Shown here in pieces: positions 19,602 to 64,000 of a DNA stretch of 64,000 nt. The stretch is from an uncultured virus (IMG/VR IMGVR_UViG_3300031646_000001) (taxonomy: Duplodnaviria; Heunggongvirae; Uroviricota; Caudoviricetes), in IMG/VR virus record IMGVR_UViG_3300031646_000001. The stretch is one strand, 5' to 3'. How positions within the stretch are numbered: position 1 is the stretch's first letter; each line of letters starts with the position of its first letter. The notes under the pieces are model-generated. The model did no database searches, had not been told where the DNA came from, and was given only the letters and a program-made list of their open reading frames with translations. The position numbers and the translations under genes were made by a program.

Positions 19602-20477
19602 ATGGCAAGAAGACAAAAATATTTAAATAATAAAGACATGCTTCTGCAGATACACAAGTCAAAAACTAGTTTCTGTTATTATATTGATAAAAGTTATAAT
19701 GATTTTGATATTATTTTGCCAAGCGTTGATGATATTATTGAGGAAAATATTGTATTAGCAAGATTAGCAAAGGCTAAGCGTATTAAAGATGGTATTGTAG
19801 CACGAATGAAGGAAGACGGAAAAGTTGTTAAAGCATCTAATATTCATGTTGATCCTGATAATGATGTTCAATTAGAAGAATTAGTTTTTCGTGTAATGAC
19901 TTATGATCATATTCCAGAAGATTCAACACGTAAGAAAAATCCAAAAACAGAAGCAGATAGGCGTACTAAAGTTCCATTCCCTCCCTTTAAACATTATGCG
20001 TTTGTTGGCGATGAATTAAAAGAAGTTGGCCGTAGCCATTGGAAGGGCGGTCTAAAAAATGGAAGATTTGATTTATTAACTGGGAAGGTAACAAACGAAT
20101 TGGCTATGATGTATCTTAAATTAGTTGAACGTTATAGTATGCGTAGTAACTGGCGTGGATATACTTATGTTGATGAAATGCGTGGCCAAGCATTATTGCA
20201 ATTGTCTCAAATAGGATTACAGTTTGACGAAAGTAAGTCACAAAATCCTTTTGCTTATTATACGGCGGCTATTACAAATAGTTTTACCCGTGTATTGAAC
20301 GTTGAAAAACGTAACCAAAACATTCGAGATGATATGCTCCAAGAAGCGGGTGCTATGCCAAGTTTTACTAGACAAATAAAACATGAGGAAGAGCAAAAAC
20401 TTCAACGAGAGCAAAAGATGAAAGCCTCAGAGGAAGCAATTGCAAAAACCAAGTCGGAAGAAGAAAGTACAGGATGA
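19602..20477 (+). CDS. gp55: Late-transcription sigma factor, gp55-like
   Basis: YLNNKDML N-terminus; RSNWRGYTYVDEMRGQALLQL...FDESKSQNPFAYYTAAITNSFTRVLNVEKRNQ signature; precedes gp47/gp46. Confidence 0.85.
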   Translation: MARRQKYLNNKDMLLQIHKSKTSFCYYIDKSYNDFDIILPSVDDIIEENIVLARLAKAKRIKDGIVARMKEDGKVVKASNIHVDPDNDVQLEELVFRVMTYDHIPEDSTRKKNPKTEADRRTKVPFPPFKHYAFVGDELKEVGRSHWKGGLKNGRFDLLTGKVTNELAMMYLKLVERYSMRSNWRGYTYVDEMRGQALLQLSQIGLQFDESKSQNPFAYYTAAITNSFTRVLNVEKRNQNIRDDMLQEAGAMPSFTRQIKHEEEQKLQREQKMKASEEAIAKTKSEEESTG

Positions 20478-23268: not shown

Positions 23269-24300
23269 ATGTTAAAAGCATTTTTTAGAAGTAAACAATG
23301 GGCCTTATGGGCCTGGGGCGGAGGTGGTTTACTTGCTATCTCTTTATGGATACAAGTACAGATAACAGTAGCCATAAACAAGTGGTATGGCGGCTTTTAT
23401 GATTTACTACAAACATCAGGAACATATAAAGATAATTCAGCAGAAGGTATTGCGTTATTTTACGATAAGTTAATTAGTCTTTCTTATTGGACTAATGGCT
23501 TCGAAGGTGACCCATCTTTTGTTGTGTTAGCATTCCCTTATGTTGTATTAGCAGTACTAACAGGTTGGTTTACTCGTGTATATGGACTGCGATGGCGCGA
23601 AGCAATAACGTTTAATTACATACCGCGTTGGCGTACAGTTAAGGAAGAAATAGAAGGCGCATCCCAGCGTATTCAAGAAGACTGTAATCGGTTTGCGCGA
23701 ATTGTAGAGTCATTGGGTTTACAAGTTGTTAGAGCTATTATGACATTAGTAGCATTTATTCCAGTATTATGGGGTTTAAGTAGTGCTGTTGAAATCCCAT
23801 TCTTTAGTGAAATACCTGGGTCATTAGTTTGGGTAGCTCTCACGGTATCATTGGGTGGTTTAATAATCTCATGGTTTGTAGGTTGGAAATTACCAGGACT
23901 TGAATACAATAATCAGAGAGTAGAAGCGGCGTTTAGAAAAGATTTAGTACTTGGCGAAGATGATAAAGCCAACTACGCACAGCCCGAAACTATATTAAGT
24001 TTGTTTACAGGAATAAAATTTAACTATCATAGGCTGTATTTACATTATGGTTATTTTGATACATGGATGATTATGTATGACCAATTTATGGTCATTGTTC
24101 CATACTTAATAATCGGTCCAGGTTTGTTTACTGGCGCAATATTGTTAGGTGTGGTAGTACAAGTTAGTAATGCGTTTAGTAAAGTACATGGTGGATTTGC
24201 ATTATTCTTACATAATTGGACTACAATAACTGAACTTCGTAGCATATGGAAACGTTTGCACGAATTCGAAAAAAATCTCGATAAGTACGCAATTGCTTAA
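23269..24300 (+). CDS. sbmA: SbmA/BacA-family peptide transporter (membrane protein)
   Basis: VAINKWYGGFYDLLQ, LRWREA, IEGASQRIQED, LPGLEYNNQRVEAAFRKDLVLGED and NWTTITELRSIWKRLHEFE motifs; multiple TM segments; GGAGG RBS. Confidence 0.85.
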   Translation: MLKAFFRSKQWALWAWGGGGLLAISLWIQVQITVAINKWYGGFYDLLQTSGTYKDNSAEGIALFYDKLISLSYWTNGFEGDPSFVVLAFPYVVLAVLTGWFTRVYGLRWREAITFNYIPRWRTVKEEIEGASQRIQEDCNRFARIVESLGLQVVRAIMTLVAFIPVLWGLSSAVEIPFFSEIPGSLVWVALTVSLGGLIISWFVGWKLPGLEYNNQRVEAAFRKDLVLGEDDKANYAQPETILSLFTGIKFNYHRLYLHYGYFDTWMIMYDQFMVIVPYLIIGPGLFTGAILLGVVVQVSNAFSKVHGGFALFLHNWTTITELRSIWKRLHEFEKNLDKYAIA

Positions 24301-24308
24301 TTAGAGAG

Positions 24309-24330
24309 GAGAGGGGCAAATACCCCTCTT
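24309..24330 (+). terminator. Hairpin separating sbmA from the radical SAM cassette
   Basis: GAGAGGGG-caaata-CCCCTCTT inverted repeat; weak U-tract. Confidence 0.45.
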
Positions 24331-24353
24331 CAACTGTAAGGTAAATATTAGTA

Positions 24354-25253
24354 ATGAAGTATTTTGAAACAGAACCAGAAGATAATATTTTTACTGCATT
24401 AGTTGCAGATCTCACCCACCGTTGTAATATGGAATGTGCCAATTGTTATATCCCTAATCGTGCATTTCCTGATATGGACGCTAACAAATTATATTCATTT
24501 TTAGAACGTTTACCTAATAGAATATATGTTAGACTTATTGGTGCAGAACCAACAATGCGTGAAGATTTATTTGATATTATTCGTAATATTAAAAAGATTG
24601 GGCATAAGTGCAGTCTAACAACCAATGGGTTAAAATTAGGGCATAGAGATTATGTTAAGGAAATTAAAAATGCTGGCCTGCGCCTTATTTTAATTTCAAT
24701 GAATGGCGCCGGCGATGATGATGTTTATAAAATTATTGATAGTGGAAAATATGCAAATTTAAAAATTAGAGCACTTCGTAATTGTATGTTAGAAAATATG
24801 ATTATTAATACAGGAACTATTATTGCAAAAGGTATTAATGAACATACAATCGATGATCAAGTTAATTTGTTTTTTAATATAATGGAAGAAACAAATTATA
24901 AACCAAGAGTCAAACCTATATTACGTTTTAAAAGTGTTGGCAAAATTGGCAGGCATATGGATGGAGATACTACATATAATATTAATGAACTTATTGATCT
25001 TTTTAAACAAAAATTTGATATACAGCCTTCGGATCAACCAGTACAAAATAGTGGTAGGACATCTGTTGATGGAACCTATGGATTAATTGGAACTATATAT
25101 GAATATAACAATGTTCTAATACGTTTTGTTGATTGGGAAGTTGACGATGACGGTGTAGTTGATTCAGGTAGTGAATATAGAGGACGTATTACTAAAGATT
25201 GGAAATGTGCTCCATTTTTTGAAAATATAAAGTTAAACGAATATGGATATTAA
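24354..25253 (+). CDS. Radical SAM enzyme (MoaA-like core, no obvious SPASM domain)
   Basis: CNMECANC (CxxxCxxC), LIGAEPT and LTTNG motifs; TAAATA at 24342-24347. Confidence 0.88.
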   Translation: MKYFETEPEDNIFTALVADLTHRCNMECANCYIPNRAFPDMDANKLYSFLERLPNRIYVRLIGAEPTMREDLFDIIRNIKKIGHKCSLTTNGLKLGHRDYVKEIKNAGLRLILISMNGAGDDDVYKIIDSGKYANLKIRALRNCMLENMIINTGTIIAKGINEHTIDDQVNLFFNIMEETNYKPRVKPILRFKSVGKIGRHMDGDTTYNINELIDLFKQKFDIQPSDQPVQNSGRTSVDGTYGLIGTIYEYNNVLIRFVDWEVDDDGVVDSGSEYRGRITKDWKCAPFFENIKLNEYGY

Positions 25254-25863
25254 TGAAATTATTAATAATCCAGATCCAGTAATATTGGGTATTATAGAAA
25301 AAGAATTACAAACATTATCAGAGCAAAATTTACATAACGTTGAAAATTACCAAGGGTTAATAACTGATATGAAGGACTATGATTGTTTTCATGTTATAAC
25401 CGAGGACGATACACTTATTGCTTTCTGTGGTTTATACAGTAAACGTTGGAATAATGTTGGTAGAGCATTACAACGTGCATATAAGAATCCATTATATAGA
25501 CGCAAAAGTTTAGCATATAATTCTACTGACAATATGCAACATTTATGGAGTGAAATTTTTGCTCCTTTACAAATTGCATTTGCTAACAAAATTGGATTGG
25601 ATGCTGTATTTGTTACTACAGAATTTCCACGTCGGTGGAAAAGTTTAAATCGATTTACTCAACGTTTAAATGGAACGTTTGAAATGCTTCCAAATATGTA
25701 CTTTATATGCAATAAATATAATACAGAAGGAAAATATATCGGAGCACATTTTGCAAAAACGTGTTGGCAAAATGTATCATTGTGTATTTTAAATGATGAA
25801 TATGTATTTGATTTCGATTCAATGACGCATAATGAATGGAGAAGTTATTTTGAAAAACAGTAA
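25243..25863 (+). CDS. GNAT-like acyltransferase (putative)
   Basis: LIAFCGL...GRALQRAYKNPLYRRK resembles the GNAT beta4/acyl-CoA loop; overlaps both neighbouring genes. Confidence 0.45.
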   Translation: MDINEIINNPDPVILGIIEKELQTLSEQNLHNVENYQGLITDMKDYDCFHVITEDDTLIAFCGLYSKRWNNVGRALQRAYKNPLYRRKSLAYNSTDNMQHLWSEIFAPLQIAFANKIGLDAVFVTTEFPRRWKSLNRFTQRLNGTFEMLPNMYFICNKYNTEGKYIGAHFAKTCWQNVSLCILNDEYVFDFDSMTHNEWRSYFEKQ

Positions 25864-26467
25864 ACCAATTAGTTTAGATAATTTATTAAATTATTCAGAT
25901 CAAACATTCATTGACGTTGCGGCCGAAATTGAAAAAGTAATTCAAAAAGTAAAACCTATTTACATTGGAAAAGATTCTGATGGCGATCTTGCATTAGTAG
26001 ATGAAAAAAACAAAGAATGGGGAGCATGGGTATTAGTTGATGATACTGTATATGGGGATGTTGATTATTATAAACCGCGCAGTTGGAATGCAATGGCCTT
26101 GCGTTTATTTCCAAAATTAGTTAAGTTTATAAACGATTTACCTATCGAGGGGTTAGGTAGAGCAATAATAATGTCAATTGATGCTAATAAAGAAGTTACA
26201 ACACACATTGATAATCAATTTTTGGATAATCAAGAAGTTTTTGATTATGATAGATTATTAAACATTAGTTTTGGAAATAAGAAACGTTTATATATGTACA
26301 ACCCCGATACTAATACAAAAAAATATTTCGAAGGTAAAATTAATTGGATTGATGTAAGTGATTATCACGGAGTTGATCCTTCTGCAGATTTTACATACTC
26401 TGTAAGGGTTGATGCAAAACTTAATAAAGATTTTAGACAACTGGTTCACGATAAGTATGGGGTATAA
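25832..26467 (+). CDS. Asp/Asn beta-hydroxylase-like 2OG-Fe(II) oxygenase
   Basis: GRAIIM...HID...YHGVD...SVRVD cupin facial triad (HxD...H) plus a 2OG-binding Arg. Confidence 0.65.
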   Translation: MNGEVILKNSKPISLDNLLNYSDQTFIDVAAEIEKVIQKVKPIYIGKDSDGDLALVDEKNKEWGAWVLVDDTVYGDVDYYKPRSWNAMALRLFPKLVKFINDLPIEGLGRAIIMSIDANKEVTTHIDNQFLDNQEVFDYDRLLNISFGNKKRLYMYNPDTNTKKYFEGKINWIDVSDYHGVDPSADFTYSVRVDAKLNKDFRQLVHDKYGV

Positions 26468-26505: not shown

Positions 26506-27333
26506 ATGATTAGTGATCTCGAAGTATTTGATTATTTTAAACAAGGATTACATGAAGAAGTTTTAACTCATCCAATTATCAAACGCAACAGATATCTATG
26601 GTGGTTTTCTCAGAACACAGATTTAGATAAAGAAGACATTATCTACTTTGCAAAACAATTTTCTGTTTTTTCAAATCAATTTATTATTGCACAATTACTA
26701 AAAACACTCAATTCAAATAGTCTCGAACAAATGCGAGATGCTAAAGAAATATTAGTAAATGAATTAGGAGTTGTATTTAAGTCTGAAAATAAAGTAAATG
26801 CAACTGAAATCGATCCCGAAGTAGTTGGTGTAGAAGGTACCGTTGATGGCGGCACATTTAGATTTAAGGCCGCACATTTTGAATGGCTTTTATTTTTTGT
26901 AAAGCCGCTTGGATTAACATTTAATGATATTGGTAAACGTAAACATGCTGATCCAGCAACACTTTTCTTTTGTGATGAGTTAATTAGAATCTACGGTAGT
27001 GATGATTTTAGTACTGCCGCTGGCGCTAGTTTTGCTGTTGAAAATTGGGCAAATGCCGGTTTTTGGAAACAGTTAATTCAAGGATTGGAATGTTATAGTA
27101 AAGAATCTGGAATACAATTAAACTTAGGATTCTTTAAATGGCATGATGCATTAGAAGCACAACACGCACAACACACATGGGATGAGTTAGAAGATTTGTT
27201 TCTTAATAATAAAGACTTCGACCAGGATAAATTTATTCGTGGGGCACTAGAAATGCTCGACGGTGTTCAAGCATTTTGGGAAGGGTTAGATCAGCACAGG
27301 ATTACAAGGTACTGGCGCGATACCAGAGGTTAA
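26506..27333 (+). CDS. Heme-oxygenase-like diiron oxidase (CADD/PqqC/TenA superfamily)
   Basis: NELG...AHFEW, FAVENW and FFKWHDALEAQHAQH (H-x3-E-x2-H) ligand pattern; own TAAATA (26472-26477) and AGGAG RBS. Confidence 0.7.
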   Translation: MISDLEVFDYFKQGLHEEVLTHPIIKRNRYLWWFSQNTDLDKEDIIYFAKQFSVFSNQFIIAQLLKTLNSNSLEQMRDAKEILVNELGVVFKSENKVNATEIDPEVVGVEGTVDGGTFRFKAAHFEWLLFFVKPLGLTFNDIGKRKHADPATLFFCDELIRIYGSDDFSTAAGASFAVENWANAGFWKQLIQGLECYSKESGIQLNLGFFKWHDALEAQHAQHTWDELEDLFLNNKDFDQDKFIRGALEMLDGVQAFWEGLDQHRITRYWRDTRG

Positions 27334-53088: not shown

Positions 53089-54186
53089 TTAGAAATCCGA
53101 CTTTGGTTTTACTGCTTTACTTATACCTTGTTTTGAAGGAATAGTAGCACCAGTATTGCCATCAATAATTAAATTAGTATTTTTTGTAAATTTATGTAGA
53201 ATTGCATTACCAGCCGCCCATATACCACGTTGATCGTCTTCGACTTTAAGCCAATGATTACCTGATTTTTTATATAATCGATGAGGAGTATAATCTGTGC
53301 GTAAATAATATGCACCGTCGGTGGCGTTTGTTGGAAATGTTGCGCCACTACCAACAACAGATGCACCGTTATCGGGTACAGCATCTTCAAGAAATATACC
53401 TTTCTTTTTATCAGTTTCATTAAAATATAAATGAGCAGTATCAAATCCGTGTTTTGGAACTTCATTTTCTGCTTGTTCAAGTACTGCTTCGCTTATATCA
53501 ATTTCACTACTATATGTACTAAGAATATTTTTTAAATCATCTGCATCATCGCCGTCACCGAGAATATCTCTATATTCGACTGTATCTTGCAATGCTTGGC
53601 ACTTGACACGTATCATGTGTGGCCACCAATTTGCATCAAATCCGCCTGCTTCTCTTACAACATCTTCTACAACATAAAATTTGCGTATCGGACCTGCTGA
53701 ATTATCAAGTCCTGTATCATCAGCCAAGTGTGGCAATTCTAAAACATCGCCGCTCATTATTTTACGACCTAAAATAGTCATATGATCATTTAAATGAAAT
53801 GTCATATAAATGTTATCAGCAGATAGAAACATACCAAATTGTGTTAAATCAAAATCATTATCTTGTGGTTGATATACGCCTCGCATATCATAAACAATTT
53901 CATCATATTTGCGATCTCTATTTTCTAAGAATAATAAATCTTGTATTTTTGTTTCTGCAACAATGTTTTTAGGATCTGTTGATTTCTTTGACGCATAGTT
54001 AGGTTTTGTTGCATCTGCTTTATTTACAGTTCCGTCTGGGTTAATTGTTTCGCCCTGGTCATAGACACCTATATACTTGTGTATAAAAACACCAGTACCG
54101 CCAGCATAAATATGTTCGCCGACTAACCGATCTACAAATTTGTAGTCATTGCCCTTTTCAGGCCTCCATAATGATAGTCGTGGCAT
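53089..54186 (-). CDS. gp14: Neck protein gp14-like
   Basis: Start reassigned to MPRLSLW at 54186 (GAGG RBS, TAAATA at 54207-54212); QDLLFLENRDRKY, DLTQFG, GRKIMSGDVLELPH. Confidence 0.75.
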   Translation of the reverse strand: MPRLSLWRPEKGNDYKFVDRLVGEHIYAGGTGVFIHKYIGVYDQGETINPDGTVNKADATKPNYASKKSTDPKNIVAETKIQDLLFLENRDRKYDEIVYDMRGVYQPQDNDFDLTQFGMFLSADNIYMTFHLNDHMTILGRKIMSGDVLELPHLADDTGLDNSAGPIRKFYVVEDVVREAGGFDANWWPHMIRVKCQALQDTVEYRDILGDGDDADDLKNILSTYSSEIDISEAVLEQAENEVPKHGFDTAHLYFNETDKKKGIFLEDAVPDNGASVVGSGATFPTNATDGAYYLRTDYTPHRLYKKSGNHWLKVEDDQRGIWAAGNAILHKFTKNTNLIIDGNTGATIPSKQGISKAVKPKSDF

Positions 54187-54226
54187 ATAATGTAACCTCT
54201 TTATTGTATTTACCGTTTTCTTTAGG

Positions 54227-54255
54227 TTGACAAATGGATAAATGTAGTTTATCAT
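54227..54255 (+). promoter_or_regulatory. Sigma70-type promoter
   Basis: TTGACA-17 nt-TATCAT upstream of 54287. Confidence 0.65.
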
Positions 54256-54286
54256 ATATAAGTACATAAAATCTCGTGGAGATATA

Positions 54287-55588
54287 ATGGCCATTTATAA
54301 AACAACTAAAAAATCTAAAAAACGTAGACCTCGTAAAAAAACAGACCTCGGCGAGTCCCCCAATTGGCCAGTATTTTTAGCCGACGGCCCTACGGATATG
54401 GCTATATATTCATATCATTCGCATTCTATGCAATGGTATAACTATAATCATAAAGCCAAAGATTTGCGTAAAGATGTTGAATTGTATCTAAAAAAGAACA
54501 AATATTCTAAAAAAGACATTAATGCTTGGAAGGCCGCAGATGTTTGGCGTACAGGTGTTACTGTTTCAGGTTTATGTAAAATGATGAATGAAGGAATGAT
54601 TGAGGTTCTACCTAATCCGTATAAACAAGATAATAAGTATAAACATTCTTATGATAAAACTTGGGAGCCTGTATCTGGACATATATGGATACAAAACAAA
54701 CTTGCTGAAATAATTGATCATGGTAAAAAAGCAATTGCTGAAAACAAAGTAGTTGAAAAAGAAAATAAATTAAAAGCACCCCCAAAAACAATTCAAGAAC
54801 GTATGCACGAAAAACTTTTAGAATTTTTAGAAGAAACCGAAGGTGCAATAGAAGATTTTTTATATGGTGACAAGCCTTTTGTATCAGATTATAGTATGTA
54901 TAAACATCTTACAAGAGACGCATTGCCTCCTAAAATAGCATCGCAAATTGTTAAAATATATGAAGGCGAGGCCGAAGAATACCAAGAATTAGCAAAGCCT
55001 TGCACAGAATCACAATTAAAGAAAATGACTGAGCAGGATCAAGATTATCATATGCAACTGTTAGAAGGACATTCTCATACGACAAAACCTCAAGCAAAAA
55101 AAATTGCTACGTTTTATGAAACCCTTATTGCTGATGTTAATATGTATATTGATTCTGCTAAAGTTTCGAGAACACCTCGTAAGAAAAAAGCACCAACAAA
55201 AGAAAAGTTAATAGCAAAACTTAAATTTAAAACAAATGATGAAAAATATAGGATAGCAAGTATTAATCCAATAGATATTATCGGTGCTGATGAATTATGG
55301 GTGTTTAATACTAAAACACGTAAACTTGGAAAGTATATAGCATTGAATACCGATCCTATGGGACTTAAAAGAGATGGTTCGGGACTATCAGTAAAAGGTA
55401 CTACAATTTTAGGTTTTCATGTTGAACAAAGTATTCAGAAGACTTTGCGTAAGCCTGAAGAACAATTAAAAGAATTTACAAAATCAGGAAAAGTAAAACT
55501 TCGAAAGTTTCTCGAAAAAATTAAGACTACAGATATTAAATTAACCGGTAGAATTAATAACGAGACGATTATACTCAAAGCCAGTTAA
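54287..55588 (+). CDS. Hypothetical protein of T4-like phages (basic termini)
   Basis: 433-aa ORF with GGAG RBS; C-terminal IIGADELWVFNTKTRKLG...SVKGTTI...KTLRKPEEQL...GRIN domain that I recall from T4-like phages. Confidence 0.7.
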   Translation: MAIYKTTKKSKKRRPRKKTDLGESPNWPVFLADGPTDMAIYSYHSHSMQWYNYNHKAKDLRKDVELYLKKNKYSKKDINAWKAADVWRTGVTVSGLCKMMNEGMIEVLPNPYKQDNKYKHSYDKTWEPVSGHIWIQNKLAEIIDHGKKAIAENKVVEKENKLKAPPKTIQERMHEKLLEFLEETEGAIEDFLYGDKPFVSDYSMYKHLTRDALPPKIASQIVKIYEGEAEEYQELAKPCTESQLKKMTEQDQDYHMQLLEGHSHTTKPQAKKIATFYETLIADVNMYIDSAKVSRTPRKKKAPTKEKLIAKLKFKTNDEKYRIASINPIDIIGADELWVFNTKTRKLGKYIALNTDPMGLKRDGSGLSVKGTTILGFHVEQSIQKTLRKPEEQLKEFTKSGKVKLRKFLEKIKTTDIKLTGRINNETIILKAS

Positions 55589-55600
55589 ATACATATAGAA

Positions 55601-55894
55601 ATGTATTTGAAGGAGATGGGTCTAATGGGACACTTGAAAGATGCCGCGATCGCGGCGAATCGTAAATGTAACTTTTCTTATTACTGCTATCATGCTTGGA
55701 TAGCATGCCGAGCAGGAACCTTGTTGGGATATTTGTCACTAATGTCATATGTCCATGCTTTTTTTCCGTTCGTATATGCTAAGTTCGGCCTGGCTGAATT
55801 AATTATTCGTAATACTAATAATATACGTAGGTCTATACCCGATTGGGAAGGCTGGAAAGAGTTAGATAATTGGGATGATGAGAAATACAAATAA
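55601..55894 (+). CDS. Small hydrophobic protein (HAFFPF motif), function unknown
   Basis: 97 aa; TAAATA at 55586-55591. Confidence 0.55.
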   Translation: MYLKEMGLMGHLKDAAIAANRKCNFSYYCYHAWIACRAGTLLGYLSLMSYVHAFFPFVYAKFGLAELIIRNTNNIRRSIPDWEGWKELDNWDDEKYK

Positions 55895-55955
55895 ATAATA
55901 CTATGAAAAAACTTCTACTAATTATCATTGATAAGTCCGTAGTAAAGGAATAATA

Positions 55956-58900
55956 ATGTTTAACTTGAACGATAGATATATCGTTTCGAGTGGTGAATTT
56001 GTTCTGTCAGGTGTACAAGCAATTGTAAAATTGTCCCTTCTTCAAAAAGAACTTGATAAGAAGAATGGGTTAAATACTGCCGGTTATGTAACAGGATACA
56101 GAGGATCGCCGCTCGGAACAGTAGATAAGGAGTTTCTCGCCCAGAGAGACCTTTTAACTAAAAACAACATTACTTTTCATCCTAGCATTAACGAAGATAT
56201 TGCAGTTGCAACATTGCAAGGTACACAGCAATTAGGCATTGTATCCAAGGCTACTGTTGACGGCGTATTTGGATTCTGGTATGGCAAAGGCCCGGGTGTT
56301 GATAGATCCGGAGATCAATTTAAGCATACAAGTTTTTTTGGTACTTCGCAATATGGTGGCTGTTTAGCATTTGCTGGTGACGATCATTCAAACAAAAGTT
56401 CTACTATCCCCCACGAGACTGGCCCCACGTTTAAAACGTGGCGTATACCCGTTATAACGCCCGCTACAGTGGAGGATGTTATCCGGCTGGGTCTAATGGG
56501 TATCGCTATGAGTCGATACAGTGGATTATGGTCTAGTATGAAGATTATTTCTAACTTAGCAGATGCGTATCAAACTGTTAGTATTAATTTAGATAGTTGG
56601 AAGCCAAATATCCCTAATAATCCTCCAGTGGTGTTTGATGTTCATGCACGGTGGCCTGATTTAGGTGTTGAGCAAGAAGCACGTATTACAGAACAAAAAC
56701 TTCCTGCATTGCAAGAATTTATGCGGTATAATATGTTTGATAGTTATAACTTGCCAAAAGAAACGCATATGCGATTTAGTAGTGATAATCGCGTTGGCAT
56801 TGTTGCTGTCGGAAAAAGTTATGTTGATACGTTAACTGCAATGCAAAAACTTGGAATTACAACAGATGATGTTGGTTTATATAAAGTTGGAATAGCCTGG
56901 CCATTGCACGAAGAACACCTCATAAATTTTTGTACATCATATCATGATATTCTTGTTGTCGAAGAAAAATCTGGATTAGTTGAAGATCAATTGTATAAAC
57001 TTTTATATAATAAACAACATAAGTGTAATTCTAGTAGAGATCAAATAAAAATACATGGTAAGAATTTATTACCGCAAAATTTAGATTTTGATGCATATGA
57101 AATAGCAAAAGCATTACAAGAATTATTTGATAAAACCGGCGGTGTTTGGGGTTGGGGTATTGGAAATGCTGACGGCGGCAAGAAAGCATTAGACGTAAAA
57201 CTAGACGATAGTTACGAATCAGTAGAAAAAAGAGAACCGCATTTTTGTAGTGGTTGCCCACACAATTCAAGTACAGTATTACCAGAAGGTAGCAAAGCAT
57301 TAATAGGCATTGGTTGTCATTATATGACAGCGTGGATGCCTGACAGGCCAAGTGTTACGTTAATGCCTATGGGCGGCGAAGGCGCAAACTGGATTGCGGC
57401 ACAACATTATCAAGAAGCCAAACACGTATTTGTAAACTTAGGTGACGGTACATATTTTCATAGTGGATTGTTAGCAATTAGAGCAAGCGTTGCCGCTGAT
57501 AGTACTATTACATATAAAATATTATATAATGATGCAGTAGCAATGACAGGCGGCCAGCCAATAGATGGTGACCTCTCGGTAGCACGTATATGTGAACAAG
57601 TAATGGCAGAAGGGGTTAAAGACGTAGCAGTAGTTACAGTCGATGGTTATGCTAATGAAATTTTGCCGCGCGGAGTTACATTACATTCAAAAGACGAATA
57701 TATACAGTTGCAAAAAAGTTATACAAAAATTAAAGGCACTAGTGTAATAGTATTTGATCAACAATGTGCTACAGAAAAAAGAAGAAAACGAAAACGAGGC
57801 TTACAACCACTAGCAGAAGAATTTGTATGGATTAATTCAGCAGTATGTGAGAACTGTGGTGACTGTTCAACACAATCAAATTGTCTAAGTATAATTCCAA
57901 CAGAAACTAAATTAGGAACAAAACGACAAATAGATTATGATAACTGTAACTATTCTTACGATTGCTTAGAAGGATTCTGTCCTTCGTTTGCTACAATTAA
58001 AGGACGTAAACCAGCAGTAGAACTTGTTAAACCAAAGTTCCCAAAGTTAGTTAATTATTTGCATCCAAAAATTTCAAAGCCGGAACGTTATAATATACTT
58101 GTTGCTGGTATCGGCGGCACTGGCGTTATTAGCACTAGTCAAATGATGTGTGTTGCCTCACATATCGATGGCATAAAAGTTATCTCAACAGATCAGACCG
58201 GGTTAGCACAAAAGTACGGAGCAGTAACATCTACAATTAGTTTAGGAGAGAAAGCATTTGGCAGAATGTTTCCAAAATCCTGTGATGTAGTAATAGGCAT
58301 AGATCCACAAGTTACAGCAATGGAAGATTCAATGCGTTTTATTGGGCCGAATACAACAGTTATTCTTAATAAAAGTTTGGCGGCCAATGCTGAGATAATA
58401 AGAAATAGAGATTGGAAGTTAGAACTTGATGATATTGTTAATGTATTAAAAACACAATGTAAGGAAGTAATTATTATAGATGCTTCTAATTACGCTAAAA
58501 AAATAACTGGTAATGCTGTAATGGTTAATATGTTGATGCTTGGTTACGCATATGAAAAATGCTTGTTACCATATAGTGAAAAAGCAATGATAAAAGCAAT
58601 TGAAGCAAACGGTGTCGCAGTAGATAGTAATAAAAATGCGTGGATGATTGGCAGGCAATCTGCTACAGTCGAAGGCCATGGCGCAATTGAACGTTCTTTG
58701 AATCCAGAGGTAAAAGATACTTTTTATAGTGCAATGTATCATAGGCACGAATTGTTAAAGAAATATCAAGACGAAGAATATGCTAACATTTATTTAGACA
58801 TAGTTACGAGAGCAAAGTTAAAAGAAGATTTCTTAAATTCAGGCACTCACAGTCATTTTAATACAGAATTTTCCGAAGCAGTAATGCGTAATTTATACAA

Positions 58901-59309
58901 GTTAATGGCATACAAAGATGAATATGAAGTAGCCCGTATTTGGAGTGCAACACCTGAAATTAACAAATATAAAACAATTAAATTTCATATGTGCTTGCCT
59001 TGGAATCGAAAGTCACAAAAGAAAACAAGAATAGGCACGTGGGCAAAATATGTATTTGCTGTATTACAACATGGTAAAAAACTTAGAGGTAAAATATATG
59101 ATCCTCTTGGATTTACATATGAACGAAGGCTGGAAAGAAAAATAAGAGATTGCTATATTTTGTTGGTTGAAGAGTGGATCAAAAATATTAAGACGGATAA
59201 CTATAGTAATACAGAAAGACTAGCAAAACTCCCTGATAACATTAGAGGATATGGACATATTAAGTTAGCAAGTATTTGTAATTGTGAATTATTTAAGGAC
59301 GTAATATGA
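55956..59309 (+). CDS. ior: Fused indolepyruvate/phenylpyruvate:ferredoxin oxidoreductase family protein (IorA-IorB fusion)
   Basis: GYRGSPLG, WYGKGPGVDRSGD, GDDHSNKSST, FCSGCPHN, GIGCHYM, TPP motif GDGTYFHSG...NDAVAMTGGQ, Fe-S CENCGDC/CLEGFCP, GIGGTGV, GLAQK, KLMAYKDEYEVAR, IRGYGHIK. Confidence 0.93.
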   Translation: MFNLNDRYIVSSGEFVLSGVQAIVKLSLLQKELDKKNGLNTAGYVTGYRGSPLGTVDKEFLAQRDLLTKNNITFHPSINEDIAVATLQGTQQLGIVSKATVDGVFGFWYGKGPGVDRSGDQFKHTSFFGTSQYGGCLAFAGDDHSNKSSTIPHETGPTFKTWRIPVITPATVEDVIRLGLMGIAMSRYSGLWSSMKIISNLADAYQTVSINLDSWKPNIPNNPPVVFDVHARWPDLGVEQEARITEQKLPALQEFMRYNMFDSYNLPKETHMRFSSDNRVGIVAVGKSYVDTLTAMQKLGITTDDVGLYKVGIAWPLHEEHLINFCTSYHDILVVEEKSGLVEDQLYKLLYNKQHKCNSSRDQIKIHGKNLLPQNLDFDAYEIAKALQELFDKTGGVWGWGIGNADGGKKALDVKLDDSYESVEKREPHFCSGCPHNSSTVLPEGSKALIGIGCHYMTAWMPDRPSVTLMPMGGEGANWIAAQHYQEAKHVFVNLGDGTYFHSGLLAIRASVAADSTITYKILYNDAVAMTGGQPIDGDLSVARICEQVMAEGVKDVAVVTVDGYANEILPRGVTLHSKDEYIQLQKSYTKIKGTSVIVFDQQCATEKRRKRKRGLQPLAEEFVWINSAVCENCGDCSTQSNCLSIIPTETKLGTKRQIDYDNCNYSYDCLEGFCPSFATIKGRKPAVELVKPKFPKLVNYLHPKISKPERYNILVAGIGGTGVISTSQMMCVASHIDGIKVISTDQTGLAQKYGAVTSTISLGEKAFGRMFPKSCDVVIGIDPQVTAMEDSMRFIGPNTTVILNKSLAANAEIIRNRDWKLELDDIVNVLKTQCKEVIIIDASNYAKKITGNAVMVNMLMLGYAYEKCLLPYSEKAMIKAIEANGVAVDSNKNAWMIGRQSATVEGHGAIERSLNPEVKDTFYSAMYHRHELLKKYQDEEYANIYLDIVTRAKLKEDFLNSGTHSHFNTEFSEAVMRNLYKLMAYKDEYEVARIWSATPEINKYKTIKFHMCLPWNRKSQKKTRIGTWAKYVFAVLQHGKKLRGKIYDPLGFTYERRLERKIRDCYILLVEEWIKNIKTDNYSNTERLAKLPDNIRGYGHIKLASICNCELFKDVI

Positions 59310-59722
59310 AGTTGCAAGGATTACATCATTTTGCGTGGAAGTGCCGAAACGCAGATGAAACGATACATTTTTATTCACATATCTTAAAACTTCCACACGT
59401 TCATACTATCGAAAAGGATCATGTTCCGAGTACAGGAGCATATGCACCTTATAAACATATTTTCTTCCAAATGGAAGATGGCAGTAATATTGCTTTTTTT
59501 GATTTAGGTGATAATAAAGGAACCACAACAGATTGTGATGATTGGGTAGTGCATTTTGCTTTTAATGTTAGTACAAAAGAAGATGTTGATAATTGGTGTC
59601 AATATTTAAAAAATAATAATATAGATGTTATAGGCCCTACTAATCATGATGATTGGATTTATAGCATTTATTTTTTCGATCCTAATGGATTGAGATTAGA
59701 GATTACAACACAGATAAACTAG
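59306..59722 (+). CDS. VOC/glyoxalase-superfamily metalloenzyme
   Basis: LHHFAW...HIFF...HFAF...SIYFFDPNGLRLEIT (His/His/Glu ligands); ATGA overlap with ior. Confidence 0.88.
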   Translation: MKLQGLHHFAWKCRNADETIHFYSHILKLPHVHTIEKDHVPSTGAYAPYKHIFFQMEDGSNIAFFDLGDNKGTTTDCDDWVVHFAFNVSTKEDVDNWCQYLKNNNIDVIGPTNHDDWIYSIYFFDPNGLRLEITTQIN

Positions 59723-59738
59723 TATATGGAAATATTAA

Positions 59739-60497
59739 ATGACAGGCGGCCGAATAAAAGATTCAAGTAGTGTAAAAATAACACAGTTTTGTGATGGGAG
59801 CGCATATTTAATTCATGCGGAAAGAGTTCGAAAATCACGCGGAGAAGAATTACCTGAGCAATTGAGAACAGATCCGTTAATGTACCAAGGCGTTAGCGAT
59901 AAATTTTTAGAATATAACGAACCAATATATCCTTATAAAGAGGCATATGGTTTAGATTTTGAAGCAGAAGTTGGTGTAATTTTAGATGATACCCCAATGG
60001 GGGTATCTGTATCCGAAGCAACAGAATATATTAAATATGTTACAATTATTAATGACATTAGTTTGCGTAAATTAATACCTGCAGAATTAGCAAAAGGTTT
60101 TGGATTTTTACAAGGAAAACCTCATAGTTCCCTTGGATTAAAATGTATTCCTTTGCGTTTTTTAAATGGCACTTGGAAAGAACATGATGCTGTATTAGAT
60201 GCAGACTTGGTTATTAATTATAATGGTGAGGAATTTGGTAGAATTAATACTGCAAATATGGATTTTAATTTTGCACAACTAATTTCACATGCGGCAAAAA
60301 CTCGTCCATTGTCTTCAGGAACATTGATAGGAAGCGGCACTGTAAGCTCTCATGATCTTTCTGACGGTTATGGTTGTTTATTAGAACGCAATGTAGTTGA
60401 AAGCATTAATGAATTTATGAATCCCGGCGATACAATTAAAATGTATATAGTTGGATATGAAGATACATTAATTATAGATCAACAAGTTGCTTTCTAG
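59739..60497 (+). CDS. Fumarylacetoacetate hydrolase family protein (appears N-terminally shortened)
   Basis: DGSAYLIH..VRK.RG...DPLMYQG.SD, DFEAEV, NDISLR.LIP.ELAKGFGFLQGKP, GTLIGSGTVS. Confidence 0.88.
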   Translation: MTGGRIKDSSSVKITQFCDGSAYLIHAERVRKSRGEELPEQLRTDPLMYQGVSDKFLEYNEPIYPYKEAYGLDFEAEVGVILDDTPMGVSVSEATEYIKYVTIINDISLRKLIPAELAKGFGFLQGKPHSSLGLKCIPLRFLNGTWKEHDAVLDADLVINYNGEEFGRINTANMDFNFAQLISHAAKTRPLSSGTLIGSGTVSSHDLSDGYGCLLERNVVESINEFMNPGDTIKMYIVGYEDTLIIDQQVAF

Positions 60498-60525
60498 GTA
60501 AATACTACTGTATAGAGGGACACAG

Positions 60526-61278
60526 ATGCCACGAAAACCTACTTTAGCACGAAATGAAGTTATTCAGCGTTTAACAACACGTCTCGGCGGCGGCATGGTT
60601 GATGTGGAATTAGATCCAGATCATTATAATGTTGCTATCGATAGAGCAATTGATCGCTATAGACAGCGATCATCTAATGCTACCGAAGAAAGCGGAATGT
60701 TTTTAACGTTGCAACCAGACATAACAGAGTATATTCTACCAAATGAAGTATTAGAAGTACGTAAGTTATATAGACGTGCTATAGGCAGTGATTCTGGCAC
60801 AGGCGCTGGAATAGATCCATTTGATATGGCATTTACAAATCTTTATATTTTGCAAGCAGGCCGCGTTGGCGGCGTCGCTTTATATGATGCATTTACTCAA
60901 TACCAAGAAGTTGTAGGTAGAATTTTTGGTAGCGAAACAAATTTTATGTGGCATCCTAATACACACAAGTTAGAAATTATTCGAAGAGTAAAGAATGAAG
61001 AAAGCATTCTTTTACATGTTCATAACGAAAAACCAGAGAATGAAGTATTAAGAGATCGTAGAAGTAGATTATGGTTAGAGGATTATGCTTTGGCAAATTG
61101 TAAAATTATGTTAGGAGAAGCAAGAGGAAAATATCAATCCTTACCTGGTGCAGCCGGCGGCGTAGCCTTAAATGGCGAGACTTTAAAACAAGAAGGCCAA
61201 GCCGAGTTAGATCGGCTCGAAATGGAAATTACTCGTTACGGAGACGGCGGCGAACCACCTACTTTTATAATCGGTTAA
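60526..61278 (+). CDS. gp13: Neck protein gp13-like
   Basis: RLGGGMVDVELDPDHY, WLEDYALANCKIMLGEARGKY..LPGAAGGVALNGETLK; TAAATA at 60499-60504. Confidence 0.85.
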   Translation: MPRKPTLARNEVIQRLTTRLGGGMVDVELDPDHYNVAIDRAIDRYRQRSSNATEESGMFLTLQPDITEYILPNEVLEVRKLYRRAIGSDSGTGAGIDPFDMAFTNLYILQAGRVGGVALYDAFTQYQEVVGRIFGSETNFMWHPNTHKLEIIRRVKNEESILLHVHNEKPENEVLRDRRSRLWLEDYALANCKIMLGEARGKYQSLPGAAGGVALNGETLKQEGQAELDRLEMEITRYGDGGEPPTFIIG

Positions 61279-61287
61279 GGAGTTCAA

Positions 61288-61557
61288 ATGTTACCAACCG
61301 ATTCCCGGGCCGAATGGCCCTATATAAATAAACCTCCCCAATATGGCACTATGGATGATCTGTCCACTGCTGATTTACTACAACTTGAAAAATTAATTTT
61401 AAATACATTAAAAGGAAATACAAATAGAGGACCAACGTATGGTGAGTTTTCTATTGTAGGACTTAATGGTTGGTTAAACGAGTGTCGTAGTATTTTACAA
61501 AAACGTAAGTATAAAAGTTCTTATAAAATATTAAAAAATATGGTGTTAACTGCTTGA
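61288..61557 (+). CDS. Hypothetical protein
   Basis: 89-aa ORF with AAGGAG RBS. Confidence 0.6.
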   Translation: MLPTDSRAEWPYINKPPQYGTMDDLSTADLLQLEKLILNTLKGNTNRGPTYGEFSIVGLNGWLNECRSILQKRKYKSSYKILKNMVLTA

Positions 61558-61582
61558 CATAGACTAAGAATAATGTTATTAT
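61554..61582 (+). promoter_or_regulatory. Sigma70-type promoter for the dNMP kinase
   Basis: TTGACA-17 nt-TATTAT ending 6 nt before ATG 61589. Confidence 0.6.
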
Positions 61583-61588
61583 AATATT

Positions 61589-62278
61589 ATGATTATTGGG
61601 TTATCTGGATTAGCAGGTAGTGGTAAAGATACAGTAGCATCTTTTATTGCTGAAAAGCACGAATTTGATAGAGTAAGTTTTGCCGGCGCCTTAAAAGATG
61701 CTACGGCCGCAGTTTTTTCCTGGCCGCGAGAATTACTTGAAGGCGACACAAATGAAAGTAGAGATTGGCGAGAACAAGTAGACACTTATTGGAGTGCAAA
61801 GTTTGGTTATGCTGTTACTCCTCGGACAATTCTTCAACAGTTTGGTACAAATGTATGCAGAGAACATTTAAATGATAATATCTGGATTTATTGTGTAGAG
61901 AAAAAATTACAAGAAAATAACAAAAATAAATTAAATACAGTAATTACAGATGTGCGGTTTCCAAATGAAATAAAAATGATTAAACAGGCCGGCGGAAAGT
62001 GTTTTCATGTTAAACGTGGCCCAGAGCCTAAATGGTGGCACTTGGCAAAGGCAGCAAATGGGTTAGAAGAAAATTTTAAAAATGATGTCATGTTCGAAGG
62101 AGATAGTGCTGTAATTTCTAATAAATTAGAGATTGAATATAATCTCCATATTAGTGAGTGGGCCTGGGTCGGGTCTTCGTTTGATAGTGTAATAAATAAT
62201 AATAGTACATTAGAGGCGTTAGATGAAAAAGTAACCAATCTATTAGCCGTTTATGATTTCTTTGGCAAGGATATATAG
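61589..62278 (+). CDS. gp1: Deoxynucleoside monophosphate kinase (T4 gp1-like)
   Basis: IIGLSGLAGSGKDT P-loop, SFAGALKD, TPRTILQQFGT, ITDVRFPNE. Confidence 0.9.
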   Translation: MIIGLSGLAGSGKDTVASFIAEKHEFDRVSFAGALKDATAAVFSWPRELLEGDTNESRDWREQVDTYWSAKFGYAVTPRTILQQFGTNVCREHLNDNIWIYCVEKKLQENNKNKLNTVITDVRFPNEIKMIKQAGGKCFHVKRGPEPKWWHLAKAANGLEENFKNDVMFEGDSAVISNKLEIEYNLHISEWAWVGSSFDSVINNNSTLEALDEKVTNLLAVYDFFGKDI

Positions 62279-62316
62279 TCAGCCAGTAATTAACGTAATA
62301 TAGAATGATGAAAGGC

Positions 62317-62340
62317 AACCGGCTATATAGTCGGTTTTAT
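62317..62340 (+). terminator. Probable terminator
   Basis: AACCGGCT-atat-AGTCGGTT followed by TTAT. Confidence 0.55.
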
Positions 62341-62406
62341 AATGATTTCCAATAAATACTGTTAACAACTTATATAAGTTATTATTAAGTTTAAGGGGAA
62401 AGATAA

Positions 62407-64000
62407 ATGCCAACATTAGTATCACCGGGCGTATCGGTTAGCGTAATCGATGAGTCCTTTTACGGATCCGCTGGTTCCGGTACTATACCTTTAATTGTAT
62501 TCGCAACGGCTGCCACTAAGGCACACCCAAGCGGCACAGGTACAGCAACTGGTACAACAGCGATCACAGATGAAGTAAAACTTATTACTTCACAACGAGA
62601 ACTAATTCAAACATATGGCGATCCTTCCTTCAGGTCGGTTAGCGGAACACAAATTCATGCTGATAATCAGAATGAATATGGTCTATTAGCGGCACATAGT
62701 TACCTAGGAATTGCAAACAGAGCATATATGCTTCGTGCAAATCTTGATTTAGGTCAACTAGGTGCGGCTTCGACTGCTCCAGCCGGCGCACCTGTTAATG
62801 GTACACACTGGTTAGATTTAACAACATCTACGATGGGCGTTTTTTCTTACAATGCGGGAACAGCAACTTGGGTTGCACAAACTGCATCTAAGTTAAACGC
62901 ATCCACTGAGGTTGATGCTGGTACCGGTGCACCGTTAAATAGTATCGGCCTGGACGGAGCGTTCGCATGGGTTGCAACTGTAGGTGGCAATGCTCATAAT
63001 AGAATCTGGAACAAAGTAAGTGGTGTTTGGTATCACTTAGGTACAGATACTTGGAGAGCAGCCGCATCAAAAGACTTTCAGTTTGCCGCACATACTGCCA
63101 TACCAACTGTAAAATCAACAGAAGGTGGCGGCGGTGCATTAGCAACCGGCGATGTATGGATTAAAACAACAGAATTCAATAACGGTACAAAAATGGTAGT
63201 GAAATCATATGATACATCTACCAAGAAATGGACCACAATTACTTGCCCAGTATTAGCAGATACAACCGCGGCTTGGACAAATTTTACAACTCCAGTTGCA
63301 GGTAACTTGTTTGCTAAGTACAATCACGAGCAAGGAGCACACACTTTAAAAGTTGCATCACATTCAATTTTACGATTTAATGGTAGTGCAACACTAGCAG
63401 TTACAGGTAGTGCCAATCCAGCACCAACTGCAACGCACACAATGGTAATTAATGGTACAACCGTTACGTACTCATCGAGTGCAGATTCAGCAGTTATTAG
63501 GACGGCAGCACTTGTTAATTCGGCGGCGATCACAAATATTACCGCTAGTGTAGCAAGTAACAAACTAGTTATTACAAATACAGCAGGTAAGGACATTGTT
63601 CTTGCCGCGGGTTCAGGGACTTTGATTACTGATTTAGGTCTAACCGCAGGAACAAGTTCAAACTGGGTTGCACTCAGTTATGAGCCAAATTTAAATACTC
63701 CAGTTGGTGCCACACCTAATGGTACATTATGGTATGATAGCAGAATTACTACAGTAGATTTGCTTGAAACATATGATAATGCAGGTGTGACAACATGGAG
63801 AACATTTAGTGGTACATTAACACCATCGGCATCAAAACCAACAACACCTTCTGCAGGTGATATATGGATTGATACAACTGACACTGAAAATTATCCACTA
63901 ATGTACAAATATAATGGTACAACATCTGTTTGGGATGTTATTGATAAGACAGACCAGACAACTAGCGAAGGTATTATATTTGGCGATTTCCGAGAAACTG
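62407..64000 (+). CDS. gp18: Tail sheath protein (N-terminal part, truncated by window end; absent from ORF track)
   Basis: MPTLVSPGVSVSVIDESFYG...LITSQRELIQTYGDPSF...NEYGLLAAHSYLGIANRAYMLRA; TAAATA at 62353-62358 and GGGG RBS. Confidence 0.9.
   Translation, partial: MPTLVSPGVSVSVIDESFYGSAGSGTIPLIVFATAATKAHPSGTGTATGTTAITDEVKLITSQRELIQTYGDPSFRSVSGTQIHADNQNEYGLLAAHSYLGIANRAYMLRANLDLGQLGAASTAPAGAPVNGTHWLDLTTSTMGVFSYNAGTATWVAQTASKLNASTEVDAGTGAPLNSIGLDGAFAWVATVGGNAHNRIWNKVSGVWYHLGTDTWRAAASKDFQFAAHTAIPTVKSTEGGGGALATGDVWIKTTEFNNGTKMVVKSYDTSTKKWTTITCPVLADTTAAWTNFTTPVAGNLFAKYNHEQGAHTLKVASHSILRFNGSATLAVTGSANPAPTATHTMVINGTTVTYSSSADSAVIRTAALVNSAAITNITASVASNKLVITNTAGKDIVLAAGSGTLITDLGLTAGTSSNWVALSYEPNLNTPVGATPNGTLWYDSRITTVDLLETYDNAGVTTWRTFSGTLTPSASKPTTPSAGDIWIDTTDTENYPLMYKYNGTTSVWDVIDKTDQTTSEGIIFGDFRET

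Follow-up and report, generated by a model that had tools for sequence, protein, structure and literature searches.

Carriage of single metabolic genes is known from phages. The DNA window analysed here, a stretch of 64,000 nucleotides, corresponds to bases 1–64000 of the 77,933-base record IMGVR_UViG_3300031646_000001 of an uncultured Caudoviricetes virus, and it holds a cassette of three adjacent genes for a fused IorAB-family 2-oxoacid:acceptor oxidoreductase (Ior), a VOC protein and an FAH-family hydrolase. The closest described relatives of Ior are the fused indolepyruvate ferredoxin oxidoreductases of Pseudomonadota (NF009589/NF009588), with Phaeobacter Ior1, which we take to be of the fused type, among them. 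According to the available text of PMC5577590, Ior1 turns phenylpyruvate into phenylacetyl-CoA and feeds the synthesis of tropodithietic acid. The VOC protein resembles the glyoxalase-fold homogentisate 1,2-dioxygenase of Acinetobacter (9U42), whose activity was shown by Seo et al. (2025; PMID 40650421), as related in the accessible part of PMC13572102. The hydrolase belongs beside the ~330-aa FAH family of hppD-hmgA-maiA clusters (3LZK; PF01557 plus PF18288).

We propose, with moderate confidence, that the cassette is intact late cargo that would serve aromatic amino-acid breakdown in two parallel arms, one made up of VOC and the short FAH and the other of Ior. All three reading frames were open and full length, and the VOC start overlapped the Ior stop in an ATGA; an earlier note on this DNA had described the two genes as translationally coupled. 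That note had placed Ior, VOC and FAH correctly (Table 1) but left unmentioned a 97-aa open reading frame (ORF) in the same interval, which accompanies VOC/FAH cargo in other phages (L045–L047, L049). The GC contents of Ior, VOC and FAH were 0.36, 0.32 and 0.34. Their GC contents at third codon positions (GC3) were 0.25, 0.22 and 0.18, compared with a contig median of 0.228 for genes of at least 130 aa, and the cassette is thus as AT-rich as the phage, as had been stated.

Table 1. Positions of the cassette, its borders and other features discussed in the text (window positions unless a locus is named).
Feature	Position	Strand	Remark
phrog_11903 conserved phage gene	54287..55588	+	left border of cargo slot
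TAAATA motif ahead of 97-aa ORF	55586..55591	+	likely late promoter; putative function
97-aa ORF	55601..55894	+	weak DUF6356 match, below cut-off
TAAATA motif 64 nt ahead of Ior start	55892..55897	+	likely late promoter for Ior-VOC-FAH
Fused IorAB-family 2-oxoacid:acceptor oxidoreductase, 1117 aa	55956..59309	+	
Single-domain VOC protein, 138 aa	59306..59722	+	predicted glyoxalase-fold homogentisate 1,2-dioxygenase
FAH-family hydrolase, short form, 252 aa	59739..60497	+	predicted fumarylacetoacetase
Neck / head-tail adaptor gene	60526..61278	+	right border of slot; own TAAATA at 60499
Late sigma factor	19602-20477		
Second cargo slot	23269-26467		SbmA/BacA-family transporter, radical SAM protein and two unknown ORFs, ahead of HDO
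HDO, heme-oxygenase-like putative diiron protein	26506..27333	+	unlinked to cassette
HDO homologues	L147:6775-7596; L188:2233-3135		
Gly/Thr/Ala-rich repetitive protein, 1764 aa	45782-51076		no Pfam match

The cassette was flanked by phage genes on both sides, as the earlier note had held, with phrog_11903 and a virion protein upstream and the head-tail adaptor, a deoxynucleoside monophosphate (dNMP) kinase and the tail sheath downstream. Viral flanks on both sides were also found in independent assemblies, the arrangement by which phage auxiliary metabolic genes (AMGs) are recognized. An assembly chimera, host contamination or decaying cargo might still be considered, as no single public contig compared spans the whole stretch, but the probability of this is negligible. 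One DNA run, possibly the sample of origin, gave contigs covering 53931–58931 (0 differences) and 59949–63000; among the RNA-library contigs, one bridged FAH and the neck gene and another spanned the end of Ior, VOC and FAH. Contigs of the region occurred in four metatranscriptome libraries, for which DNA carry-over is a possible source. Because the gene order was kept in diverged strains (L137 and L138, 88–90% Ior identity) and in a sister phage (56%), the cassette is not a chimera; these copies and the contigs bridging both borders contradict the chimeric borders that had been named as grounds for refutation. Host contamination, already considered unlikely, is opposed by the phage-like GC3, the phage flanks and a viral Ior clade far from bacterial copies. 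The three enzyme genes are under purifying selection. Pairwise dN/dS was 0.12–0.26 for Ior (6 pairs), 0.03–0.18 for VOC (9 of 10 pairs, one being saturated), 0.19–0.40 for FAH (6 pairs) and 0.08–0.11 for the neck gene, all of these being rough values with many dS above 1.

The TAAATA motif lay upstream of 22 of the 54 genes, compared with 7.7 ± 2.5 in 1000 shuffles (maximum 16), and a sigma-70 promoter scan gave nothing above shuffles. The motif was read as a late promoter from its position before structural genes and from the late sigma factor encoded in the window. It stands ahead of the 97-aa ORF, of Ior and of the neck gene but not of VOC or FAH, which had also been said to follow it. The late-type motif ahead of Ior, with its putative promoter role, and the late sigma factor agree with the late timing proposed earlier, and the cassette is likely expressed late in infection.

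The phage carries the cassette intact, in a variable slot ahead of the neck gene. Among 25 non-self viral loci with the neck gene, both border genes were visible in 17, and the slot was empty in 13 of these, held a class-III aminotransferase in two, a thioredoxin-like gene plus Ior in one and an unknown gene in one. A search for viral Ior fusions and for the synteny recovered diverged strains and sister phages with Ior-VOC-FAH. The fullest cassette (L147/L148) was ordered aminotransferase-Ior-VOC-FAH-HDO-HppD-neck-dNMP kinase-sheath, where HDO is a heme-oxygenase-like putative diiron protein; L004, L030, L147 and L148 probably represent one sister phage population and are not independent. Ior stood immediately ahead of VOC in L030/L147, L149, L207 and L029. 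The idea of one fixed three-gene module did not hold, as Ior was found without VOC/FAH in L031, L033, L034 and L035 (the last three being large phage contigs) and VOC plus FAH without Ior. A 323-kb, 90%-complete phage had VOC-FAH-aminotransferase and an HDO elsewhere, and the order in L060 (IMG/VR) was HppD-FAH-VOC. Two phage HppDs both passed TIGR01263. The class-III aminotransferase adjoined phage Ior in L029, L030 and L032, and Ior was directly ahead of a D-amino acid dehydrogenase in L035; these neighbours likely make 2-oxoacids. In L045–L047 and L052, a DUF6356-like ORF, HDO, VOC, a 349-aa Rossmann-type dehydrogenase-like gene and FAH lay beside the same virion-protein gene and faced genes of the GlnII-like or ammonium-transporter type. 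The sister cargo included genes for a Leu/Phe/Trp-type dehydrogenase, GlnII and Amt. An amino-acid dehydrogenase at L167:4728-5762 stood between VOC and FAH (best match a ScyB-like Trp dehydrogenase, below cut-off), and related genes occurred in L156 and L169. L037 (GC 0.70, grouping with bacteria) and L036 (possibly a prophage edge) were left out of the viral cargo.

The VOC protein passed PF00903, and its His/His/Glu site, pointed out earlier, was H8/H83/E132, invariant across 29 aligned VOCs. Its best solved relative by sequence and fold was the Acinetobacter enzyme 9U42 (TM 0.90), with which it shares the triad, the motifs VPST..PY.H.F, W..H.AF and SIYFFDPN, an hppD and fahA neighbourhood and the exclusion of HmgA. 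In contrast to that enzyme, the phage VOC (38% identical) belongs to a sister subfamily, has 138 instead of 182 aa, is phage-encoded and has no adjacent maiA. It gave no match to the HmgA (canonical cupin) domain and failed the FosA/FosB NCBIfam cut-offs (best 41 bits vs. 171). An Acinetobacter record contained a fahA-maiA-VOC-iclR-hpd cluster in which VOC was annotated as FosB; such genes are easily missed because annotation pipelines label VOC "glyoxalase" or "FosB." GenBank records of "Acinetobacter phage MD-2021a" (L135, L136) carry bacterial chromosome genes, and their VOC, of the homogentisate-dioxygenase type, was annotated as fosfomycin resistance protein FosB.

Of the 96 metagenome loci from the short-FAH search, the best 80 were used to count gene neighbourhoods; these loci are only 1–13 kb long, so some absences reflect truncation. 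VOC was present in 47 and an HmgA-type gene in 16, with no locus holding both. VOC occurred with HppD in 25 loci (7 groups at 90% FAH identity), and MaiA occurred in 17, never alongside VOC. Phage-type genes accompanied VOC and HppD in L142, L147, L167, L203 and L216, and L155 and L159 were not counted as viral. On this contig FAH is the sole adjacent pathway gene of VOC; the hppD link and the hmgA exclusion hold across loci. Of 301 alphaproteobacterial genomes, 93 had HppD, and a VOC match (E < 1e-30) was found in 14 of the 16 HppD genomes that lacked an HmgA match and in 8 of the 77 that had one (Fisher p 2e-9, uncorrected for kinship; the cut-off was chosen after the data were seen, and one 56-residue HmgA fragment match was dropped). 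The solved precedent and these neighbourhoods support the earlier guess of a non-canonical homogentisate dioxygenase, and it is rather likely that the phage VOC cleaves homogentisate. It probably works like the Acinetobacter enzyme, as a member of a sister subfamily. It was not called an orthologue because phage VOCs lie outside the Acinetobacter-type clade and the contexts of their nearest bacterial relatives are mixed. The phage clade also includes a VOC at L073:6004-6495 (67% identity); its contig has a GC content of 24% and is binned in a Marinimicrobia metagenome-assembled genome (MAG), and the neighbouring genes gave a giant-virus-like impression.

The FAH passed PF01557 and kept the catalytic-domain residues, which agrees with its earlier assignment to this family; it failed the canonical fumarylacetoacetase model TIGR01266 (25 bits vs. 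a cut-off of 375). It shares the catalytic domain and neighbourhood of the 3LZK-type family, but the N-terminal domain of bacterial relatives (~80 aa, PF18288) is missing across the entire short clade, and its alignment to 3LZK begins at residue 98 of that chain. The invariant residues were H26, D73, E75, E77, D106, K127 and T201, and 63 of the 76 columns invariant in 20 long forms were kept. A broken gene was considered and rejected, since 92 of the best 120 matches were also at most 301 aa long (some being fragments) and the gene is under purifying selection. Long forms adjoin hppD, maiA and either hmgA or VOC, and one lies beside an acetoacetate-CoA ligase; on account of these pathway neighbours, the phage FAH is predicted to be a fumarylacetoacetase.

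Ior was confirmed as an intact thiamine pyrophosphate (TPP)/Fe-S oxidoreductase. It passed both PRK13030 (1142 bits, cut-off 816) and PRK13029 (1092, cut-off 952) of NCBIfam at full length and failed the archaeal-type two-subunit equivalogs TIGR03336 and TIGR03334 (132 of 651 and 84 of 206 bits). It retained E80, GDGTYFHSG (496–504), C431/C434/C454/C604 and the ferredoxin-domain cysteines C631/634/637/643/664/670/675, that is, 11 of the 11 cysteines invariant in 64 non-viral rows; the roles of the TPP motif, the activating Glu and the Fe-S cysteines are presumably those of the enzyme family. The domain order, cysteines and TPP motif are the same as in the fused enzymes of Pseudomonadota, but viral Ior is trimmed in seven loops. 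Among the best 120 of 8000 scored matches, 17 shared 46–92% identity (sixteen of 1061–1117 aa and one 666-aa fragment), whereas the next, at 39–42%, were 1150–1208 aa long. In a FastTree phylogeny of 88 rows, with warnings of composition bias and long branches, the viral Iors formed a separate long-branched clade that joined no bacterial subgroup, the position of L034 being unsure. The more distant phage Iors of L034 and L035 (37%) adjoin DNA polymerase B/terminase and thyA/DHFR genes and are possibly separate captures. No sequence relative of Ior was found in the PDB, and its AlphaFold model had a pLDDT of 54.7, too low for use.

Several findings weigh against the proposed roles. On the VOC side, MaiA was found in none of the 47 VOC loci and none of 5 phage records, and the 323-kb phage with VOC and FAH had no HppD, MaiA or Ior match. 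The genome-level exclusivity of VOC and HmgA counts mostly the clade of Acinetobacter type, which has 14 rows and a support of 97 and includes the VOC of the Acinetobacter hpd cluster. In quick trees of about 140 columns, phage VOCs lay outside it as a separate clade of 17 rows (support 92). Phage VOCs were 37–43% identical to the VOC of the Acinetobacter hpd cluster and 49–61% identical to several bacterial VOCs in non-tyrosine contexts (L064, L066, L067, L069, L070, L076, L077), and the nearest bacterial FAH-VOC pairs (G001, G266) showed no strong HppD/HmgA match. This VOC subfamily might cleave another hydroquinone or catechol, or be another VOC enzyme, its HppD/FAH link being partly inherited hitch-hiking. 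The sister-subfamily position fits that view, as do close bacterial relatives whose neighbours are alpha/beta-hydrolase-like or CoA-metabolism genes and the presence of such a VOC together with HmgA in G210 and G065. However, VOC is kept together with HppD and FAH across the seven sequence groups and two different gene orders, and never with HmgA; L068 has the order monooxygenase-VOC-fumarylacetoacetase; and the phage VOC keeps most of the near-metal-site positions invariant in the Acinetobacter-type clade. Such a different role of the VOC seems quite improbable.

The remaining contrary points concern Ior, which keeps 257 of the 332 columns conserved in bacteria and was present in only 7 of the 80 FAH loci. 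The earlier note took aryl-pyruvate use by fused Ior proteins as established; that standing is not supported, because the same family occurs in an Acinetobacter leucine-catabolism cluster with genes for enoyl-CoA hydratase, carboxylase, LeuA-like lyase and isovaleryl-CoA dehydrogenase. VOC and FAH could then serve to break down tyrosine, with Ior as an oxidoreductase for branched-chain or a broad range of 2-oxoacids, which would make the slot a general amino-acid scavenging kit and not an aromatic cassette. Besides the Acinetobacter cluster, the viral loci with Ior but neither VOC nor FAH and the dehydrogenase, GlnII and Amt genes of sister cargo are in favour of this. A branched-chain role in isoleucine breakdown has also been proposed for a two-subunit R. 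rubrum relative, according to the available text of PMC7238569. Against it, Ior lies directly ahead of VOC in the loci named above, and the tree joins the viral Ior clade to no bacterial subgroup. We regard a broad-range Ior as somewhat unlikely and retain the two aromatic arms.

HDO probably belongs to the same gene set as the cassette. It was present in 41 of the 80 FAH loci, lay between FAH and HppD in sister phages and was divergent from hppD-hmgA-fahA-maiA in Methylococcales. The bacterial HDO copies found were Methylococcales MAG proteins; HDO was in none of 401 sampled Pseudomonadota genomes, and no sequence relative was found in the PDB. It is a candidate for the missing oxygenase step, for example as a substitute for PhhA. 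A bolder possibility, which we consider unlikely, is a streamlined Phe/Tyr route of the phages' own, with a deaminating enzyme, HDO as a pterin-independent phenylalanine hydroxylase, HppD, the 138-aa glyoxalase-fold dioxygenase, an FAH that bypasses MaiA by hydrolysing maleylacetoacetate directly and a viral Ior giving low-potential electrons. No 2Fe-2S ferredoxin (PF00111) was found in 5 phage records, the search being limited to this type and not extended to 4Fe-4S ferredoxins and flavodoxins.

By textbook chemistry, Ior and HppD both draw on aryl-pyruvates, and Ior and VOC plus FAH travel separately; two parallel arms were proposed for these reasons, and not one chain. Every reaction in them is a prediction from the observed genes, borders, conserved residues, purifying selection, neighbourhoods and fold match. 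In the first arm, host or phage HppD would convert 4-hydroxyphenylpyruvate to homogentisate, VOC would cleave this to maleylacetoacetate, host MaiA would form fumarylacetoacetate unless the step is bypassed, and FAH would release fumarate and acetoacetate. In the second, Ior would convert phenylpyruvate or other 2-oxoacids to acyl-CoA and CO2 and reduce a host electron carrier. The host of this phage would supply HppD and MaiA; sister phages bring their own HppD. Virion production may gain carbon, reductant and the amino nitrogen that is released. The drain of oxoacids would pull deamination, which fits the GlnII and ammonium-transporter genes adjoining some sister cassettes. It is very improbable that the enzymes instead act on host chemistry, by removing homogentisate (the redox-active pyomelanin precursor) or by shifting phenylacetyl-CoA toward antimicrobials or signals. 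The part of Phaeobacter Ior1 in tropodithietic acid synthesis and the near-complete phage that retains VOC and FAH without HppD would suit such a role, but many relatives carry the homogentisate-making HppD with deaminating and nitrogen-assimilation genes, and pathway flux fits these better.

The phage is a PA5oct/GAP32-like jumbo myophage. A 255-kb metagenome contig (L139) holds the identical region and therefore indicates a jumbo myophage; the window encodes baseplate, portal, prohead protease, major capsid, tail-sheath-stabiliser and tail-sheath proteins. The major capsid protein shared 71% identity with its counterpart in Pseudomonas phage PA5oct and 65% with those of GAP32-like phages, and the late sigma factor and host-type cargo between core genes are further common features. 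All 24 listed runs holding the region were marine or seawater metagenomes. The 1764-aa repetitive protein is probably a virion fibre. In the second cargo slot, the SbmA/BacA-family transporter passed NF009036, and another SbmA homologue was seen ~7 kb from Ior in L033. Contig L062, filed in a Methylophilaceae MAG, gave a weak host hint; it hardly differs from viral locus L049 and is therefore probably a mis-binned phage.

The enzyme families are already known, and we found no earlier account of their carriage and reshuffling in jumbo phages. The literature searched yielded no mention of Ior, HppD or homogentisate genes in phages, although supplementary AMG tables and subscription papers may list some. 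Term searches gave no such genes in the available text of PMC7824862, PMC9123017, PMC13282480 and PMC6008428 or in the accessible main text of PMC9007349, and the available part of PMC5343134 did not mention Ior. Among 50,697 GenBank phage records, none matched FAH; Ior and VOC were matched over their full length by phage-labelled contigs annotated with bacterial chromosome genes, and a third Ior match (23% identity) was an unannotated record. Several marine jumbo phages keep, with purifying selection acting on it, a reshuffled amino-acid catabolic set including the 1117-aa TPP/Fe-S oxidoreductase and ring-cleavage steps. This raises three enzyme questions, namely a minimal homogentisate dioxygenase, an FAH possibly bypassing MaiA and a diiron protein, so far an orphan, linked to hppD. 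Should the enzymes prove active, aromatic amino acids would be mineralised in infected cells under viral control.

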